From assembly GCA_029366385.1 (NCBI GenBank), contig GCA_029366385.1_4540.1: a stretch of 64,000 nucleotides of DNA; one strand, given 5' to 3'. The translations under genes were made by a program, and so were the position numbers. This stretch comes from a phage. Every line of letters begins with the position of its first letter. The first letter of the stretch is position 1. The notes under the pieces were generated by a model. The model was given only the letters and a program-made list of their open reading frames with translations, did no database searches and had not been told where the DNA came from. Positions 4,577-10,623 of this stretch are shown piece by piece.

Positions 4577-4828
4577 TTAGAACTCGACAATGATTTTGTC
4601 TAAGTGTTCTGCTTCAACTTGGGATAATGTTAACACCTGCACCAAACCTCTGTCAATACCAATTTTAATGACTTGCAAATAATCACCAAAAAGATCTGAT
4701 AAAGAAATAGCATGTTCCGTAACTACAATAACTTCATTACCTTTAGTGTATTCTTTCCACACCCGACCACATTTATAAATGTAATCTTTTTGATCTTCAG
4801 TAATCATTTTAGGTTTGATACTTAACAT
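4577..4828 (-). CDS. Hypothetical protein
   Basis: 83-aa ORF, start overlaps stop of upstream gene. Confidence 0.5.
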   Translation of the reverse strand: MLSIKPKMITEDQKDYIYKCGRVWKEYTKGNEVIVVTEHAISLSDLFGDYLQVIKIGIDRGLVQVLTLSQVEAEHLDKIIVEF

Positions 4829-5166
4829 TACATACTCCCGTATTCTGGTTCAATATTATGTTTACGACAAATGGTATCCCAACGTTCATTACCAAAACTT
4901 CTTCCATGTAGAGCGTTAAATGCGAAATGCTCTGCCAACCACAATACTACATCATCAGGATCTGTGTCAAGAGGAATTCTAAACTCTCGATCATAACGCA
5001 TACGCAGAATAAAATCCTTATCATCTTCAAGGAGATACATGTGACTTTTAGCCCGTGATGCCAAATCAAAGAAAGGAGGCTCATCTTTCCAAACGTGACG
5101 CTCAACTTCAACACCATGATCTACTACCAGAGTAGCGATCACCTCTCTCATTTCTTTACTAAACAT
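4828..5166 (-). CDS. Hypothetical protein
   Basis: Track ORF 4828-5193; start moved to ATG at 5166 preceded by GGAGGT. Confidence 0.5.
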   Translation of the reverse strand: MFSKEMREVIATLVVDHGVEVERHVWKDEPPFFDLASRAKSHMYLLEDDKDFILRMRYDREFRIPLDTDPDDVVLWLAEHFAFNALHGRSFGNERWDTICRKHNIEPEYGSM

Positions 5167-5176
5167 ATTACCTCCA

Positions 5177-5365
5177 TTAACCAATGAGTTCAACTGCTTT
5201 GCAGATGTAGATCCAAACCGGAGTGAGCATAAGAGCTATACCGAATGCACAATTCCACTTAATTCCCATTTCCTCTATTAGAGACATGATTAAGCCAACA
5301 GCACTAATAATCAGATAGATCCCTAAGAAAGCCATTGTGAAGAATTCAGACATATTTAGCTCCAA
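5177..5365 (-). CDS. Small membrane protein (two hydrophobic segments)
   Basis: 62-aa ORF with FLGIYLIISAVGLIMSLI and FGIALMLTPVWIYIC segments. Confidence 0.45.
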   Translation of the reverse strand: MELNMSEFFTMAFLGIYLIISAVGLIMSLIEEMGIKWNCAFGIALMLTPVWIYICKAVELIG

Positions 5366-5712
5366 AGATTATCAAAATAACTAGCGAATAAAAGACGGCC
5401 CTCTAACCGTGCCTTCCTTTGATCTTCAGCATACACGATTTCTGGATTACCACTATCAATAAAAGCATTCTCCATCTTTTCTAAAATATTTAACCACTCT
5501 CTTCTACCTGTCTCCTCTTCTTCATCTGTATACGGCGCACTTCTATTTGGATACAAAACACGCATCAGTTTAGTGGGGATCATGACAAACGTGCTATTGT
5601 TTGCCTTCTCACGGAAGGCTTTAATTCCTGCATAGATTACCTTCCCCAAAGCTGCATCCAAATCCATCAGGTCACTTTCTTCTATTTGAATTTCATCGTG
5701 TACAATTTTCAT
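5356..5712 (-). CDS. Hypothetical protein
   Basis: 118-aa ORF in co-directional overlapping series. Confidence 0.5.
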   Translation of the reverse strand: MKIVHDEIQIEESDLMDLDAALGKVIYAGIKAFREKANNSTFVMIPTKLMRVLYPNRSAPYTDEEEETGRREWLNILEKMENAFIDSGNPEIVYAEDQRKARLEGRLLFASYFDNLWS

Positions 5713-5996
5713 CGTGCCTTCTCCCGATCTGCGTCCAATTTCAACAAGAAGGTTGCATACTCTTCTGAGCCTTGATGCAAGAACATACGATAAGAACTTA
5801 CCAGTTTCTTGGTCGTTGTATAACGTTCCATTTCCCCAACAACACCTCCACCCAGGGTGTAGAGCACAACACCCTCAAACCCAACATGAGTTACTACTTC
5901 AACCAAGTCTGTGTTATCCCAATGGTAGTTAGGTGACACAATAAGATCGCCAACTGCCAGTTTAATGTTTGCTACTTCATTTTGTGAATAATACAT
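5709..5996 (-). CDS. Hypothetical protein
   Basis: 95-aa ORF; ATGA start/stop overlap with downstream gene. Confidence 0.5.
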   Translation of the reverse strand: MYYSQNEVANIKLAVGDLIVSPNYHWDNTDLVEVVTHVGFEGVVLYTLGGGVVGEMERYTTTKKLVSSYRMFLHQGSEEYATFLLKLDADREKAR

Positions 5997-6008
5997 TTGG
6001 TTCTCCTC

Positions 6009-6302
6009 TCACATTAAGACACGTTTTGTATCGATGGGTGCATTATCAAACATGTTAAGAACATTGTCAAGCAGTTTTACTAATTCATTTGTAATTTGTT
6101 CTTTTGAACGGGAGGAAGTGAGCACTTTGCTTTCACCAACGATATGCATAACTTTTATAGGAGCATCTAAAATAATGTTGTGCTGACGATCCTCTTCAAA
6201 AGAAGCCAACCATTTCTCGTTGTTACCGTGTAAGGCTACAATGACACCAAAACCGTTAATTGTCTCAGAAATATTCTTAGTTGCTAAAGTAATGTTCATC
6301 AT
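6009..6302 (-). CDS. Hypothetical protein
   Basis: 97-aa ORF; first gene of leftward block, RBS-like AGAGAGG upstream. Confidence 0.5.
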   Translation of the reverse strand: MMNITLATKNISETINGFGVIVALHGNNEKWLASFEEDRQHNIILDAPIKVMHIVGESKVLTSSRSKEQITNELVKLLDNVLNMFDNAPIDTKRVLM

Positions 6303-6327
6303 CTACCTCTCTTGTTAATGTTCATAT

Positions 6328-6355
6328 ATGATACCTGAAAATAATTTCAGATCAA
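6328..6355 (-). promoter_or_regulatory. Putative sigma70-like promoter for leftward block (TTGATC-N16-TATCAT on - strand)
   Basis: Reverse complement of 6328-6355 gives TTGATC, 16-nt spacer, TATCAT; located in divergent intergenic region. Confidence 0.3.
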
Positions 6356-6358
6356 GTA

Positions 6359-6386
6359 TTGACATGCTTTTTAGTCCTGTTAAGAT
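6359..6386 (+). promoter_or_regulatory. Putative sigma70-like promoter TTGACA-N16-TAAGAT for rightward block
   Basis: TTGACA 6359-6364, TAAGAT 6381-6386; 30 nt upstream of RBS AAGAGGAGA and ATG 6417. Confidence 0.45.
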
Positions 6387-6416
6387 CAACTCATACAAAA
6401 CAAGAGGAGAAAACAA

Positions 6417-6851
6417 ATGCAAAACATCAAACTGACTTGGACCGAAGCTAAAGAAGCAATGAAGGAAGGTAGACGTGTTGAGCACAGTTATTTTTGCGGT
6501 GGTGAATGGTTTGAGATGCGAGATGGTGTTATTCTCGACGAACAAGGTTATAACATGGAAACTTGGTTCAGAGGGGAAGCTTGGCAGGAAGAGGGTTGGT
6601 CTGTAATTGAAAAAGAAGACAGTAAGGAAGAAGGCGTGTTGTCTAATGTAGAACGCAAGATGAGGGAAACAAAGATACCTGCTTTGGATTTTGTATACCT
6701 GGAAGAACTTGTGGCAGCATCTTTTGTAGCAGGAAATCTTTGGAATACACCTGTTAGCCGACTGGAGAACCAAAATAACCCATCTGCTCGTAATCACAAG
6801 CTTTATAAGGGTAAAGGTCACAACAAATTAAAGAAAGGAAAGAAGAAATGA
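6417..6851 (+). CDS. Hypothetical protein, possible DUF2829-like N-terminal region
   Basis: 144 aa; strong RBS; pattern W-TEAKEAMKEGRRV ... W..EEGWSVIE recalls DUF2829; Lys-rich C-tail; antisense track ORF 6315-6821 judged spurious. Confidence 0.5.
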   Translation: MQNIKLTWTEAKEAMKEGRRVEHSYFCGGEWFEMRDGVILDEQGYNMETWFRGEAWQEEGWSVIEKEDSKEEGVLSNVERKMRETKIPALDFVYLEELVAASFVAGNLWNTPVSRLENQNNPSARNHKLYKGKGHNKLKKGKKK

Positions 6852-6994
6852 TCTACAAAAACAAGTTCACTGGTTGTCTCCGTAAATTTATCGATAAGAA
6901 AGGGTATGTTTCTCTTGACAACGGGGTTACATGGACAGAGAATGGCACTTCAGAACAGCTGATCAAAGCTTTGCCTTACTACGAGGAGGTTTAA
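6848..6994 (+). CDS. Small protein (48 aa)
   Basis: Unlisted ORF MIYKNKFTGCLRKFIDKKGYVSLDNGVTWTENGTSEQLIKALPYYEEV; ATGA overlap with upstream stop, stop abuts next ATG. Confidence 0.35.
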   Translation: MIYKNKFTGCLRKFIDKKGYVSLDNGVTWTENGTSEQLIKALPYYEEV

Positions 6995-7318
6995 ATGTCA
7001 AACAGTTTGTTTAGCGTGTCAATTGCACCACGTGTCAACATCCGTTGTCAGTTTGTTACTTTACCTGGTGTAACGCATATCACATTAGAATACGATCCTC
7101 GCTCACGAGACAACCCAATCACAGGGAAAATTGATTGTGCTTATGGAGACTTTGTTATGGATCACCAAACCCTCTTATGCTGTGTGCAACGCTTACAGGC
7201 AGGATCTTTATACATCTTTAAGAAAACAGTGTTCCAAGAGATTGCTCAAGCAGTTGAAAGCGGTATGGAGACTCTTAACGTTATGATTGAAGCAGCCAAC
7301 CAGAAGGAGGTTTTATGA
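6995..7318 (+). CDS. Hypothetical protein
   Basis: 107-aa ORF, GAGGAGG RBS. Confidence 0.5.
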   Translation: MSNSLFSVSIAPRVNIRCQFVTLPGVTHITLEYDPRSRDNPITGKIDCAYGDFVMDHQTLLCCVQRLQAGSLYIFKKTVFQEIAQAVESGMETLNVMIEAANQKEVL

Positions 7319-7572
7319 CACTTTATCACGTAACCACTGAAGGCGATACCGAAGGTCGTACTACGAAAGATTTAGGGTATGTTGAAGCAGATTCCCCTGA
7401 ACACGCAATTAAGTATTTGCATTCCATCGGTAAATATGCGACTTATGAATATACTATCTACAAGGTTGAAGTTAGCCCTATACAAGTGGCAACTCCTATG
7501 GTAGAGTTGAAACATCTTAAGGCAAAAGTAAGACCTGGTATAGTGTCCGATTACAAAGGGGAAGTAAAGTGA
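7315..7572 (+). CDS. Hypothetical protein
   Basis: 85-aa ORF, overlapping start/stop. Confidence 0.5.
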   Translation: MTLYHVTTEGDTEGRTTKDLGYVEADSPEHAIKYLHSIGKYATYEYTIYKVEVSPIQVATPMVELKHLKAKVRPGIVSDYKGEVK

Positions 7573-7781
7573 GTGGATGGATTAAAGTATCTGGTACCGA
7601 GGATGTTCCTATCGGAGAGTGGCTTGTAATCATGGCAAACGGCAAGAAGGGATTCTGTGAAGTTAACAAAACACGCAATGGCACGATAGCTGTTATCAAT
7701 GGTCATTTTTATTTTGACTTGGCACCTGTGATCGCATACCATGCACTACCAACATATGAAGAGGAGATTAACAATGGCTAA
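7569..7781 (+). CDS. Hypothetical protein
   Basis: 70-aa ORF. Confidence 0.45.
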   Translation: MSGWIKVSGTEDVPIGEWLVIMANGKKGFCEVNKTRNGTIAVINGHFYFDLAPVIAYHALPTYEEEINNG

Positions 7782-8097
7782 CAAAGAACCACATGTATAC
7801 ACTGCACTGGTAAAGCACTTGAACAAAGAACGTAACAAGATCATTGCAGATTATCGTAAATTTAAACGTAGTAGTCTAAATCGTAAATACATGCCACATG
7901 CAGCTTTTGACGCTACACGTGCAGTGTTTCGTGCAAAGATTGCAGAAATGGATAATCTGCTTAAGCTTGCACGATTATCTATTCAGGCATCCAAAGTAAC
8001 AGGAGTCACTCACTTCTTTGACTTCGATACTAAAGCACTATATGCACCAGAAGCAGGTGAACAATTGATTTATCTACTTACCAAAAATAAGTGTTGA
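7774..8097 (+). CDS. Hypothetical protein
   Basis: Track ORF 7741-8097; start moved to ATG 7774 after GAGGAG; overlaps upstream stop (ATGGCTAA). Confidence 0.5.
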   Translation: MANKEPHVYTALVKHLNKERNKIIADYRKFKRSSLNRKYMPHAAFDATRAVFRAKIAEMDNLLKLARLSIQASKVTGVTHFFDFDTKALYAPEAGEQLIYLLTKNKC

Positions 8098-8266
8098 CTT
8101 TTTTCAAAAAATATGCTACCCTAACCCCGAAGGGTCGAGCGATAGCGAGTATAGATTATGTAATAGATTAATCTCTATCGTTAGATGTTCGAAGAACAGA
8201 GAGTTAAGTACTTGTTCTTATCGGTAGATGATCGTAAGATCAAGAACAATAATAGGAGAGTGTGTT

Positions 8267-8464
8267 ATGTTAGTCAGTGAAATACTACCTGACTCTAATG
8301 GTAATCAGATCACTATTGATTGGTTTCCTGGTACTGGTACACTAGATCTAACTGCTGAATGGTCTGGTGATATTTATGGAGAAGGTGTATTATCATTGTC
8401 TACAGAACAAATGATCATCCTTCGTGACTTCTTAATTAGTTTAGATCTAGGAGAAAACAAATGA
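8267..8464 (+). CDS. Hypothetical protein
   Basis: Track ORF 8228-8464; ATG 8267 preceded by AGGAGAG. Confidence 0.45.
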   Translation: MLVSEILPDSNGNQITIDWFPGTGTLDLTAEWSGDIYGEGVLSLSTEQMIILRDFLISLDLGENK

Positions 8465-8730
8465 GTAAAACTTCTGTTGAGTTTATCGAGAAATCCCCTG
8501 TTCCAAAGTTATACCGTTTATCTGAAATTGAACCTATGTCTGTTTTCTATTACTACAACTCAGAAGTAAATGAACAAGAACGGGACTACTACTTAGCTAC
8601 AGATACAGGTGCAGTTTGCTTAACAGGTTCTCGTGCAGGAGAATACATTGCAAATAGTCGTTTTAATGAAGCAGATTCCTGTTGGGCTAAGGTTGAAACT
8701 AAGATCGTCATCAACATCATCAATCATTAA
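8461..8730 (+). CDS. Hypothetical protein
   Basis: 89-aa ORF. Confidence 0.5.
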   Translation: MSKTSVEFIEKSPVPKLYRLSEIEPMSVFYYYNSEVNEQERDYYLATDTGAVCLTGSRAGEYIANSRFNEADSCWAKVETKIVINIINH

Positions 8731-8752
8731 GATTAATCTCACAAAGAGTTAC

Positions 8753-8782
8753 TTGACATGTGCAAAGCTCTTTGTGTAGAAT
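8753..8782 (+). promoter_or_regulatory. Putative promoter TTGACA-N18-TAGAAT bracketed by 9-bp inverted repeat
   Basis: TTGACA 8753-8758, TAGAAT 8777-8782; inverted repeat CACAAAGAG (8740-8748) / CTCTTTGTG (8768-8776) flanks the -35 element. Confidence 0.35.
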
Positions 8783-8812
8783 AAAGATTCACTTACTAAG
8801 GAGACTTTATAA

Positions 8813-9010
8813 ATGGCTACAAAGAAACAGAAAATGAAATGTCTTACTCTTACTGAACTGGGTCAAGCTTCCAACTGCGTTACTGTTGGTAAGATTTATT
8901 CTACAGTTCTTGATAAAGACAACAACAGTTTTACTTTCAAAGATGATAACGGAAACCCTCAAGTTGGAATCTACCCTTCCTGTGCTTTTGGTACTTGGGA
9001 AAAAGTGTAA
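8813..9010 (+). CDS. Hypothetical protein
   Basis: 65-aa ORF, AAGGAG RBS. Confidence 0.45.
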   Translation: MATKKQKMKCLTLTELGQASNCVTVGKIYSTVLDKDNNSFTFKDDNGNPQVGIYPSCAFGTWEKV

Positions 9011-9053
9011 CTAATTAGAGGGTATACTTGTAAACAAGATTAAGGAGGCATTT

Positions 9054-9227
9054 ATGGGAGATAAACAAAGTAACATCCGTTACGCGCTTTATGGAAGAAT
9101 GGGTGCAGATTGTGAATGGATGCTTCTGTCGCAACGTATACCCTCTTACAAAGAGGCTCTTGAAAAAAGAGACTATTATAAACAAACATGGCGTTTTGTC
9201 ATTTGTAAACACTATTTGGAGGCGTGA
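9054..9227 (+). CDS. Small protein (57 aa)
   Basis: Unlisted ORF with AAGGAGG RBS; preferred over antisense track ORF 9015-9242. Confidence 0.35.
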   Translation: MGDKQSNIRYALYGRMGADCEWMLLSQRIPSYKEALEKRDYYKQTWRFVICKHYLEA

Positions 9228-9535
9228 TGAGTACATTATCATTAGCAGTTATGGTACATCAACAGTATGAAGAAGCTGTGAAAGATTCAGAAAACCCTTC
9301 TACATTGGTGTTTGAAGATCGGACTGGTCTTAAATGGGTAGAATCTTGTGGTGAACTTTACTTTTGGTATCCACAAGGTTGCACAAGTAATTCTAATCTG
9401 TATAGTTATGAATTGGAGTATCGTGCGCCTGTAGACGAAGATGATAATTACATCATGTATTATGTTAATAATGGTTGCGGTGAAATGTTTAATGTAGTAT
9501 TCTCTAAAGCCTTGAAGTCCGACGAGGAGATGTGA
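9227..9535 (+). CDS. Hypothetical protein
   Basis: Track ORF 9224-9535 (GTG) taken from the ATG at 9227. Confidence 0.5.
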   Translation: MSTLSLAVMVHQQYEEAVKDSENPSTLVFEDRTGLKWVESCGELYFWYPQGCTSNSNLYSYELEYRAPVDEDDNYIMYYVNNGCGEMFNVVFSKALKSDEEM

Positions 9536-9894
9536 TGAGAAAAGTGCTGTTTGCCTTGCTGTTATTAGCCTCTACTGGTGTTTTTGCTCGTGACGGCTTT
9601 AAGGTTGGGGCAGATCGCACTAAATTCTTCACATGGTTCGGAGGTGAAGCACTTTACCAAGACGGTAAAGATAAAATAAAATGTAAGTATGTAGAAACAT
9701 TAAAAGGTGTGGATGATTGGGGCGATGCTTATCAAGCAACAGGCTTCTCTTGTAAGAAACACCTTTACATTGTAGTAAAAGAGTTTCAAGATATAAATAA
9801 ACAACTTTTTATTTTAGTAGATCCTAGTAAATTTAATGAACGGGCAGCTTATGAAGTTGACATGTTCTTAGAATACAAGAAGGAGGAAAAATGA
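9532..9894 (+). CDS. Secreted protein (signal peptide)
   Basis: N-terminus MMRKVLFALLLLASTGVFA typical Sec signal. Confidence 0.55.
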   Translation: MMRKVLFALLLLASTGVFARDGFKVGADRTKFFTWFGGEALYQDGKDKIKCKYVETLKGVDDWGDAYQATGFSCKKHLYIVVKEFQDINKQLFILVDPSKFNERAAYEVDMFLEYKKEEK

Positions 9895-10253
9895 GAGAAA
9901 CGATTGTAGATGTTGTTATTAATGGTCAACGTTATGTGCCTGTTGTAGATAAAGCTGAACCAGATGCTTTAGATGTTGTTTTTGAAGACGATGATCTTGG
10001 CACTGTTACTGTGCGTGAATATTTCAGACGACTGCTCTCTACACTTTGGGAAGAAGAAGACAGTTTCAGTGGAAAACGTCCTTTCGGTAATTCTTGTTGG
10101 CAGTTCGATTTGATTATTGGTTTGATCGATGCTGGGTACCTGGAAGGTAAAGTTTATCGTGACGAAGATGGTGGTATAGAAGATACCGACTATGATCGAG
10201 AAGAAGCAGATAAACTAATTCAAGGTCTGATCGCACGTATGTGTTTAGGTTAA
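9891..10253 (+). CDS. Hypothetical acidic protein
   Basis: 120-aa ORF. Confidence 0.5.
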   Translation: MRETIVDVVINGQRYVPVVDKAEPDALDVVFEDDDLGTVTVREYFRRLLSTLWEEEDSFSGKRPFGNSCWQFDLIIGLIDAGYLEGKVYRDEDGGIEDTDYDREEADKLIQGLIARMCLG

Positions 10254-10254
10254 T

Positions 10255-10623
10255 ATGAAGGTATTAAACTTTTACCATTTAGGCAAAACAATCCCAGAAG
10301 GTGCTGTTTATATTGGTAGAGCAATGCCACACATGGGACTAAAAGCCTCCAAGTTTGCAAACCCTTTTAAGTTAAAAGATGATGAACCACGAGGATCAAC
10401 TATACAAAGGTATAAAGAGTGGTTGTGGGAGCAAATTCGTTGTGGTAAGATCACTCTTGAAGATTTATTAGAGCTAGAAGGGAAAGATTTAGTTTGCTTC
10501 TGCTCCCCTCAACCTTGTCATGGAGATGTATTGATAGCAGCCGTGGCTTGGGCTAGAAAAGAGTGGGACAAAAGGCATCCTACTTATGTAGACAATTATT
10601 GGATTTGGGAGGAGAATTTTTGA
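10255..10623 (+). CDS. Hypothetical protein with NPF and C-x-C-SPQPCH motifs
   Basis: 122 aa; FANPFKL and LVCFCSPQPCHGDVL; family not resolved. Confidence 0.5.
   Translation: MKVLNFYHLGKTIPEGAVYIGRAMPHMGLKASKFANPFKLKDDEPRGSTIQRYKEWLWEQIRCGKITLEDLLELEGKDLVCFCSPQPCHGDVLIAAVAWARKEWDKRHPTYVDNYWIWEENF

Follow-up and report, generated by a model that had tools for sequence, protein, structure and literature searches.

An early-type gene of Phapecoctavirus encodes a probable insertion-less relative of the Tad2 fold

The open reading frame (ORF) at positions 6417–6851 (+ strand) of the 64,000-nucleotide phage sequence analysed here (contig GCA_029366385.1_4540.1, the whole of which is called the window) encodes a protein of 144 amino acids, whose N-terminal domain is very probably homologous to the Tad2 superfamily, the query side of the comparison being a predicted model. 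This homology is well supported because profile-profile comparison and comparison of the model with known structures both point to it, so that the likeness of the N-terminal 65 residues or so to DUF2829, the family of the Thoeris anti-defence protein Tad2, which the original prediction had put forward, is upheld as a distant homology by hhalign, Foldseek and BFVD alike. The phrog_3474-type domain of this protein (hereafter the N-domain) is a family separate from PF11195, the Pfam family of Tad2-like proteins, with its own signature of His23, Phe26, Glu30, Glu42 and Trp61. The same prediction had suggested a Tad2-type Thoeris sponge, and this part of it is not supported as stated: the family lies below the PF11195 threshold, the residues that contact the Thoeris signal are mostly absent, and the characteristic insertion is replaced by a three-residue turn. 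The reading we tentatively favour is a small-molecule sponge of some kind, plausibly with a ligand other than the Thoeris signal.

The family was delimited by an exhaustive phmmer search with residues 1–70 against 1.84 billion representatives, which returned 91 clusters, mostly standalone proteins of 60–70 amino acids, and 67 of these clusters make up the family alignment; a word-indexed homolog search found close orthologs only, none of them Pfam-labelled. Membership of PF11195 was defined by the Pfam gathering threshold of 25 bits. The query had no match to this family at an expect value (E) of 10 or below, whether full-length or as the domain alone, and, searched by itself, it found nothing relevant in the PDB (phmmer), PADLOC and NCBIfam also being empty. 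When the 67 aligned proteins were scanned one by one, 24 touched PF11195 without reaching its threshold in any case (best E 2.9e-4), and other Pfam families recurred at most twice; the single member for which a score was displayed reached 18.7 bits against the 25-bit cut-off. Of the 45 family proteins that the family profile returned, none carried the precomputed PF11195 label, compared with 120 of 120 listed relatives of ModTad2 as a positive control. The product of ORF 6417–6851 is not a PF11195 member.

Profile comparisons reach further than such searches. The family profile run against PDB sequences found one ModTad2 match, which was non-significant (E 0.86) and covered helix alpha1 only, and a plain Tad2 hidden Markov model (HMM) aligned with essentially the first 20–45 positions of family members only. 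With hhalign, the family alignment matched an alignment of ModTad2 relatives with 88.6% probability (E 2.6e-6) over 36 columns only, that is alpha1, beta1 and little beyond, and the domain-trimmed query profile matched a broader Tad2 reference (113 PF11195 proteins together with the SPO1 and Spt Tad2 sequences from PDB alignments) with 93.1% probability (E 3.2e-7) over 64 columns. As controls, the query profile gave 0.8% when reversed and at most 1.1% in ten column-shuffled versions. The original prediction had named the lack of a significant DUF2829 profile hit as evidence against itself; such a hit is indeed lacking when an HMM is compared with single sequences, and it is present, in the sense of a distant relationship, when profiles or structures are compared.

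The predicted structure agrees with this relationship. AlphaFold2, run on the full-length protein with an 82-sequence alignment, produced a block at residues 1–66 with a predicted local distance difference test score (pLDDT) of 75–89, the remainder lying at 48–68, and for the domain alone the pLDDT rose to 89.1 with a predicted template modelling score of 0.74. In the domain model, a helix at residues 8–16 is followed by strands at 20–23, 32–35 and 38–41, a helix at 55–58 and a strand at 61–64, which reproduces the Tad2 core fold of helix alpha1, antiparallel sheet, C-terminal helix and last strand. Structure prediction followed by comparison with Tad2 had been proposed as a check, and in a Foldseek search of 350,542 PDB chains the top 12 matches were all Tad2 chains (SPO1, Spt and Mod), with probabilities of up to 0.99 and template modelling (TM) scores, normalised to the target, of 0.57–0.61, the E-values being non-significant (best 0.1). 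In BFVD, the family's own members were followed by proteins of 60–63 amino acids named ‘DUF2829 domain-containing’ (33% identity, E 5e-4, TM to target 0.75), and the matches also include ‘Thoeris anti-defense 2-like’ proteins. The short viral ‘DUF2829 domain-containing’ proteins, for example A0A8S5RI74 and A0A2K9VAK2 of Klebsiella phage KpS110, have the same size as the N-domain and a similar predicted fold (TM to target 0.74–0.75, 20–33% identity), which shows that the annotated family, or at least its margin, includes forms without the insertion; these proteins are picked up by the Pfam/InterPro model, whereas the query's family is not, and the literature examined reports no function for them.

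What such a fold could bind was judged from the known structures. SPO1 Tad2 (Gp34.65) is an 89-residue homotetramer, in which protomers pair via alpha2 and beta2 and dimers interlock along alpha1, and it holds glycocyclic ADP-ribose (gcADPR) between protomers through contacts with W25, N26, W73, D79, I63, T65, D67, H71, S76 and T78 (10.1101/2023.05.01.538930). In HgmTad2 the substitutions W21A/N22A and S90A/T92A/D93A markedly reduce gcADPR binding, and about 99% of Tad2 proteins are predicted to have a functional gcADPR site; between beta2 and the core strand that follows lies an insertion of 24 residues in SPO1 Tad2 and 41 in HgmTad2, which forms a cyclic-dinucleotide pocket in HgmTad2 and SptTad2 (10.1101/2023.11.15.567273). 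The invariant residues of the Tad2 alignment are, in ModTad2 numbering, F6, G16, R21, G23, W24, N25, G26, W72, D83 and W84.

The profile alignment sets query H23 opposite SPO1 R22, F26 opposite W25 (the aromatic is kept, with 93% Phe in the family), C27 opposite N26 (a family-variable position, mostly Thr) and E30 opposite M30. Further along, F51 (or W50) stands opposite W73, again with the aromatic kept, a gap opposite S76–T78, E54 opposite D79 (acidic in 39% of the family only), W56 opposite L81 and G60-W61 opposite D84-W85. By this mapping, of which the C-terminal half is of low confidence, the set of gcADPR ligand residues (W25/N26, W73, S76, T78 and D79) is not reproduced in the N-domain. 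An Arg-Asp-Gly turn occupies the place of the SPO1 insertion (residues 36–59), where the profile alignment leaves a gap of about 24 residues, and in the model strands 32–35 and 38–41 are likewise joined by a turn of three residues, so that the beta2-beta3 insertion is missing and the long (35–41 residues) pocket-forming type of HgmTad2 and SptTad2 is absent from the N-domain. The Tad2 proteins (SPO1 Gp34.65, ModTad2, HgmTad2/AcrIIA7 and SptTad2) are, through this insertion, longer than the N-domain by about 25–40 residues, and none of them has the 78-residue C-terminal extension of the ORF 6417–6851 product. Where Tad2 has the invariant R-x-G-W-N-G and S-x-T-D, the N-domain family has H-x-(Y)-F-x-x-x-E and a non-conserved stretch, and its conserved Glu30 and Glu42 are its own and not those of Tad2.

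Binding of gcADPR or cyclic dinucleotides in the canonical manner thus appears unlikely, because the protein has neither the insertion of 24–41 residues nor the invariant GWNG asparagine nor the S-x-T-D motif. The same findings bear on the canonical Tad2 explanation, in which a homotetramer would sequester the Thoeris signal 1''-3' gcADPR (3'cADPR) and so block ThsA activation. Tad2 is the best structural match and PF11195 the only recurring Pfam signal, aromatics occur at both Trp positions (F26 and W50/F51), Glu54 of this protein lies opposite D79, and the gene is placed for early expression. However, the query has no PF11195 match at any reported E-value, neither of the two motifs is conserved, W/N and S/T/D mutations markedly lower gcADPR binding by HgmTad2, about 99% of true Tad2 proteins are reported to keep the gcADPR site, and the insertion that contributes to the dimer is missing; we consider this explanation very improbable.

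The residues that the family does conserve form a pattern of their own. The full-length protein matches phrog_22208 over residues 1–144 (E 1.2e-99), and residues 4–65 match the 64-position family phrog_3474 (E 2.1e-30); both families are functionally unannotated, and their PHROG v4 description records no link to Tad2. Residues 1–65 recur as a module (tblastn) in 482 of 50,697 phage records, about 1% of sequenced phage genomes, with Klebsiella, Escherichia, Salmonella, Citrobacter and Erwinia among the hosts, whereas the C-terminal half is, by the same search, essentially limited to phapecoctaviruses. Within the family, the signature A11, G18, H23, F26, E30, E42, G44, an aromatic at 50/51, W56, G60 and W61 is strongly kept (A11 93%, G18 96%, H23 88%, F26 93%, E30 96%, E42 91%, G44 87%, G60 93% and W61 97%), and positions 31, 50, 51 and 56 are aromatic in 87–99% of members. 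The conserved polar positions are His23, Glu30 and Glu42, and conserved aromatics stand at 26, 31, 45, 50/51, 56 and 61. When mapped from sequence onto the secondary structure, these residues would sit where Tad2 builds its pocket, namely on the beta1-beta2 loop, at the end of beta3 and on the stretch from beta4 to the helix; the family thus appears to retain the scaffold and two stacking aromatics, with the polar ligand residues replaced by an invariant His, Glu and Glu.

Placed in this way, the conserved residues suggest a remodelled pocket, and this is the core of the small-molecule sponge that we tentatively favour. Residues 5–66 (6429–6614, + strand) carry the insertion-less, Tad2-like fold of the phrog_3474 family, and the block of residues 1–66 would represent a minimal Tad2 fold, which retains alpha1, the small beta-sheet and the C-terminal helix and in which the Arg-Asp-Gly turn takes the place of the insertion. 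The conserved His/Glu/Glu and the aromatics would form the remodelled binding site in a homo-oligomer, and the N-domain would remove or mask a small host molecule early in infection as a counter-defence, the ligand being one other than 1''-3' gcADPR or the cyclic dinucleotides held by the insertion; the linker, helix and basic tail that follow would be a lineage-specific addition, probably for localisation or a second interaction. The family shares several traits with sponges, i.e. a standalone size of 60–70 residues, tandem duplications and fusions to other small modules. Changes of specificity have precedents, since Tad2 homologs bind 3'cADPR, histidine-ADP-ribose (His-ADPR), N7-cADPR, cyclic dinucleotides or cyclic UMP, and, of 84 sponge homologs that were tested against seven systems, 19 inhibited none.

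Several points weigh against a sponge. The element of the V-shaped dimer, alpha2 within the insertion, is absent, so that the protein may be unable to assemble the Tad2 quaternary structure with its interface pocket. Two Glu and one His make up the conserved polar residues, in a domain that is itself acidic (family median net charge -4, and -7 in the ORF 6417–6851 protein), and the resulting site would be acidic, in contrast to the known sponge pockets, which are described as almost always positively charged (10.1101/2025.07.12.664507). The confident, structure-independent sequence similarity to Tad2 is confined to alpha1-beta1, and the residue mapping beyond beta1, in the C-terminal half of the domain, has low alignment confidence. 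No recognisable anti-defence genes were found near the standalone homologs (in Bas81, PKO111, EcSzw_1 and two metagenomic contigs), and the varied C-terminal modules attached to a constant N-domain would fit an adaptor or targeting role equally well.

This last point leads to the modular architecture of the family. In the ORF 6417–6851 product the N-domain is followed by an acidic, charged linker (residues 66–90, 6612–6686, + strand), whose length and sequence vary among the aligned orthologs and whose pLDDT is 48–68, and then by a conserved helix and a basic tail (KGKGHNKLKKGKKK). The helix motif D-F-x-x-L-E-x-x-x-x-A-x-F-x-x-G, here DFVYLEELVAASFVAG (residues 91–106, 6687–6734, + strand), has an invariant A101 and G106 and a nearly invariant E96 in the ortholog alignment, and AlphaFold2 places a helix at 92–105 with low confidence. 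Elsewhere in the family the N-domain carries other partners or a second copy of itself. Tandem N-domain duplications occur in two proteins of 175 and 182 amino acids (P0044 and P0091), with His/Phe/Glu/Glu in both copies, which hints that the functional unit would contain at least two N-domains. A protein of 108 amino acids (P0092) has at its residues 81–106 a SEC-C-like CSCGSGLKFKNCC motif (TIGR04102 motif match, E 1.3e-6) in a basic C-terminal appendage, and, apart from this motif, Pfam scans found no known domain in the extensions of the longer family members. In Justusliebigvirus phage inny, the gene inny_188 (L008 1501–2052, +) encodes an N-domain fused to a 110-residue phrog_11295 domain.

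Known sponge domains are often fused to each other (10.1101/2025.07.12.664507). Fused sponges such as Tad2-Acb4 and Tad2-Sequestin (PF21825) resemble the N-domain in being built from a small domain that occurs alone, duplicated or fused to small modules, and differ from it in their partners, since those of the N-domain (the basic tail, phrog_11295 and the SEC-C-like motif) do not belong to the known sponge domains; Pfam scans of the query and the longer family members showed no match to Acb4 or PF21825. The alternative suggested by this architecture is that the N-domain is a protein-binding head or adaptor, which would bind a host macromolecule (or oligomerise) and deliver or anchor interchangeable C-terminal modules, possibly as a stoichiometric inhibitor of a host protein. 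The presence of at least three unrelated C-terminal modules (helix and tail, phrog_11295 and SEC-C-like), the acidity of the N-domain and the loss of the canonical ligand residues all speak for it, and AcrIIA7, a DUF2829 protein, has been reported as a Cas9 inhibitor of unknown mechanism. Many phage inhibitors of proteins are acidic. However, most family members are the bare domain of 60–70 residues without any cargo, the His/Glu/Glu and the many aromatics on pocket-forming loops look more like the site of a small ligand, and tandem duplication is more typical of symmetric oligomeric binders. We regard an adaptor as the main and a serious rival, somewhat less probable than the sponge that we continue to prefer.

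The basic tail, HKLYKGKGHNKLKKGKKK (residues 127–144, 6795–6848, + strand, net charge +9), deserves separate consideration. It is conserved nearly letter for letter in all full-length orthologs, with the consensus K-G-K-G-H-N-K-L-(K/Q)-K-(G/R)-K-K-K, and in three relatives (P0026, P0028 and P0046) the helix motif and the tail recur even though their N-domains are 43–47% identical to that of the query and the spacers differ. Because it is kept across such divergence, the tail reads as a true sequence motif beyond mere compositional bias, and the conservation of tail and helix suggests that the tail may have a specific binding function. A takeover factor directed at nucleic acid, ribosome or membrane could thus be envisaged, in which the tail, with or without an amphipathic helix, would bind DNA, RNA or anionic lipid and the N-domain would modulate or oligomerise. 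This would suit the strong conservation of the tail beyond composition next to N-domains of just 43–47% identity, the SEC-C-like basic zinc motif at the end of P0092 and the bipolar charge of the protein (head -7, tail +9). It is nonetheless quite unlikely, as the tail occurs in a small subfamily only and most N-domain proteins have none, the sister genus Justusliebigvirus swaps it at the same locus for an unrelated globular domain, so that it is unlikely to serve the core function, and no nucleic-acid-binding fold was detected. Within the window the tail sequence is found a single time. A widespread, portable targeting peptide was considered and dropped, the back-translated IMG/VR scan having returned one ortholog and one chance internal match. 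An unrelated IMG/VR contig from this tail-motif scan (L007) contains at 8084–10384 (+) an ORF for a 766-residue glycosyltransferase-like protein with an apparent intein-like insert, which includes a LAGLIDADG-type segment, ‘LIGLYLAEGCV’, and a terminal ‘...SSSNS’ junction.

The position of the gene is consistent with the role in counter-defence that the original prediction had read from it. ORF 6417–6851 is, with hardly any room for doubt, a real gene, because it has conserved orthologs, a ribosome-binding site and a promoter. It is a complete coding sequence (+ strand, ATG start, 144 amino acids plus stop, phrog_22208), it is taken from the ORF list, and orthologs with 62–99% identity are carried by Phapecoctavirus genomes and metagenomes. 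The divergent intergenic region before it, at 6303–6416, measures 114 nucleotides and has a leftward gene on its far side. The best promoter-like site on the + strand of this region, at 6359–6386, is of sigma-70 type (-35 TTGACA at 6359–6364, a 16-nucleotide spacer and an extended -10, TGnTAAGAT, at 6378–6386) and scores 10/12 in a consensus scan with an upstream TG; a Shine-Dalgarno sequence, AGAGGAG, is read at 6403–6409 (+), 7 nucleotides before the ATG, and is invariant across a three-way alignment. At the locus of a relative (L006, protein about 76% identical), the -35, the TG, the -10 (TATGAT) and the ribosome-binding site are kept, and the adjacent bases vary. A conserved promoter of the sigma-70 type can reasonably be taken to mean transcription by the host RNA polymerase and, therefore, early expression, so that the gene is probably expressed early; a literature search for phAPEC8 transcriptomics gave nothing relevant.

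Some homologs in other phages lie in comparable places. In a T5-like phage (Epseptimavirus), a 65-residue homolog is located within the annotated left terminal repeat, alongside A1 and A2; in T5 the left terminal repeat is the first-step-transfer, pre-early region. An N4-like metagenomic contig has its homolog after genes matching Phage_N4_Gp1/Gp2 and before the phage RNA polymerase. Other settings are between nrdG/glutaredoxin and gp55 in a T4-like Jiaodavirus, between DNA polymerase and ligase in a FelixO1-like phage, and amid unannotated small ORFs in Bas81 and two other contigs. In none of these settings does the homolog have a known anti-defence gene as its neighbour. The repeated immediate-early placement (T5-like, N4-like and phAPEC8-like) fits host takeover or counter-defence, and early placement in three unrelated phage types (the sigma-70 promoter here, the T5-like repeat and the position after N4 Gp1/Gp2) lends support to a sponge.

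The literature search found no paper characterising the phrog_3474-type family. The large survey of Tad2 proteins by Hadary et al. required an HHpred probability above 0.9 to PF11195 for inclusion, a criterion by which the family is borderline, with 88.6% and 93.1% obtained against two home-made Tad2 profiles and not against the PF11195 model itself. In coliphages of the therapeutic type, a sizeable part of the Tad2 superfamily escapes annotation by Pfam threshold. Sponges have served as tools for the discovery of immune signals, 3'cADPR via Tad1/Tad2 and His-ADPR via ModTad2 being the examples, and, because they have repeatedly revealed such signals, a Tad2-derived family without the canonical pocket or insertion is a concrete candidate for novelty, either in the ligand bound or in the use made of the fold; its interest would rise further if a new ligand or target emerged. 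One could go on to propose that phrog_3474 is a distinct, previously unrecognised sponge clade whose pocket of His/Glu/Glu and aromatics would hold an immune or stress signal bound by no known sponge, with C-terminal modules that add a second counter-defence activity, and that this signal is possibly made by a defence system so far uncharacterised in Enterobacteria, a combination that we regard as rather unlikely.

Two existing labels were also considered. The identical gene in LR597654 (phAPEC8_ev052) bears the product name tRNA methyltransferase, in that one record only; no methyltransferase or other enzyme family was matched in Pfam, NCBIfam, PHROGs or the PDB, the only structured domain has a Tad2-like fold, and all other records say hypothetical, so that the chance of this activity is practically nil. 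The label, at L001 7418–7852 (LR597654.1, VUF54565.1), looks like an annotation error and could propagate. The anti-TIR (Toll/interleukin-1 receptor) entry of AntiDefenseFinder for Phapecoctavirus, Atd1, was set aside as a different gene, a MazG-like (p)ppGpp pyrophosphatase. Atd1 of phapecoctaviruses is reported to blunt the toxicity of TIR effectors (PMC11724313; 10.1101/2022.06.09.495361).

Among the neighbouring genes, the one at 4828–5193 (- strand, 121 amino acids, phrog_11295, without a Pfam or PDB match) is nominated as a candidate functional partner of the N-domain, because its homolog is fused to the N-domain in Justusliebigvirus: its product is 61% identical over 112 residues (BLASTP, E 4e-51) to residues 73–183 of inny_188, a gene that is syntenic with ORF 6417–6851 as the first gene past the divergent promoter region. 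Homologs of 4828–5193 occur in 136 phage records. The genes 4828–5193 and 6417–6851 are uncharacterised early genes in opposite arms of a divergent operon pair.

The window comes from a Phapecoctavirus genome (Stephanstirmvirinae). In DNA comparison its bases 5000–9000 match Escherichia phages ESCO13 and vB_EcoM_3A1_SA_NWU at 100% identity and further close relatives, e.g., phAPEC8_ev052, at about 97–99.9%. Neither a second copy (paralog) of the N-domain nor a canonical Tad2 was found in the 64-kb window. This Stephanstirmvirinae region is also carried by records of about 146–150 kb attributed to Campylobacter (MG065689.1 A110a, MG065656.1 C3), Klebsiella, Acinetobacter, Pseudomonas and Serratia; in the Campylobacter-labelled records the intergenic DNA is about 74% identical and the partner protein 61%, the protein value being also that of the E. 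coli Justusliebigvirus phages, and the host labels of those non-Escherichia records may be unreliable. The region around 6417–6851 is an array of small early-type ORFs, of which 6009–6302 (-), 5709–5996 (-) and 6995–7318 (+) match DUF7325 (E 6.5e-24), Phage_tudor (E 2.9e-26) and DUF7247 (E 1.4e-46), respectively, three recently defined Pfam families whose function is unknown or loosely defined.

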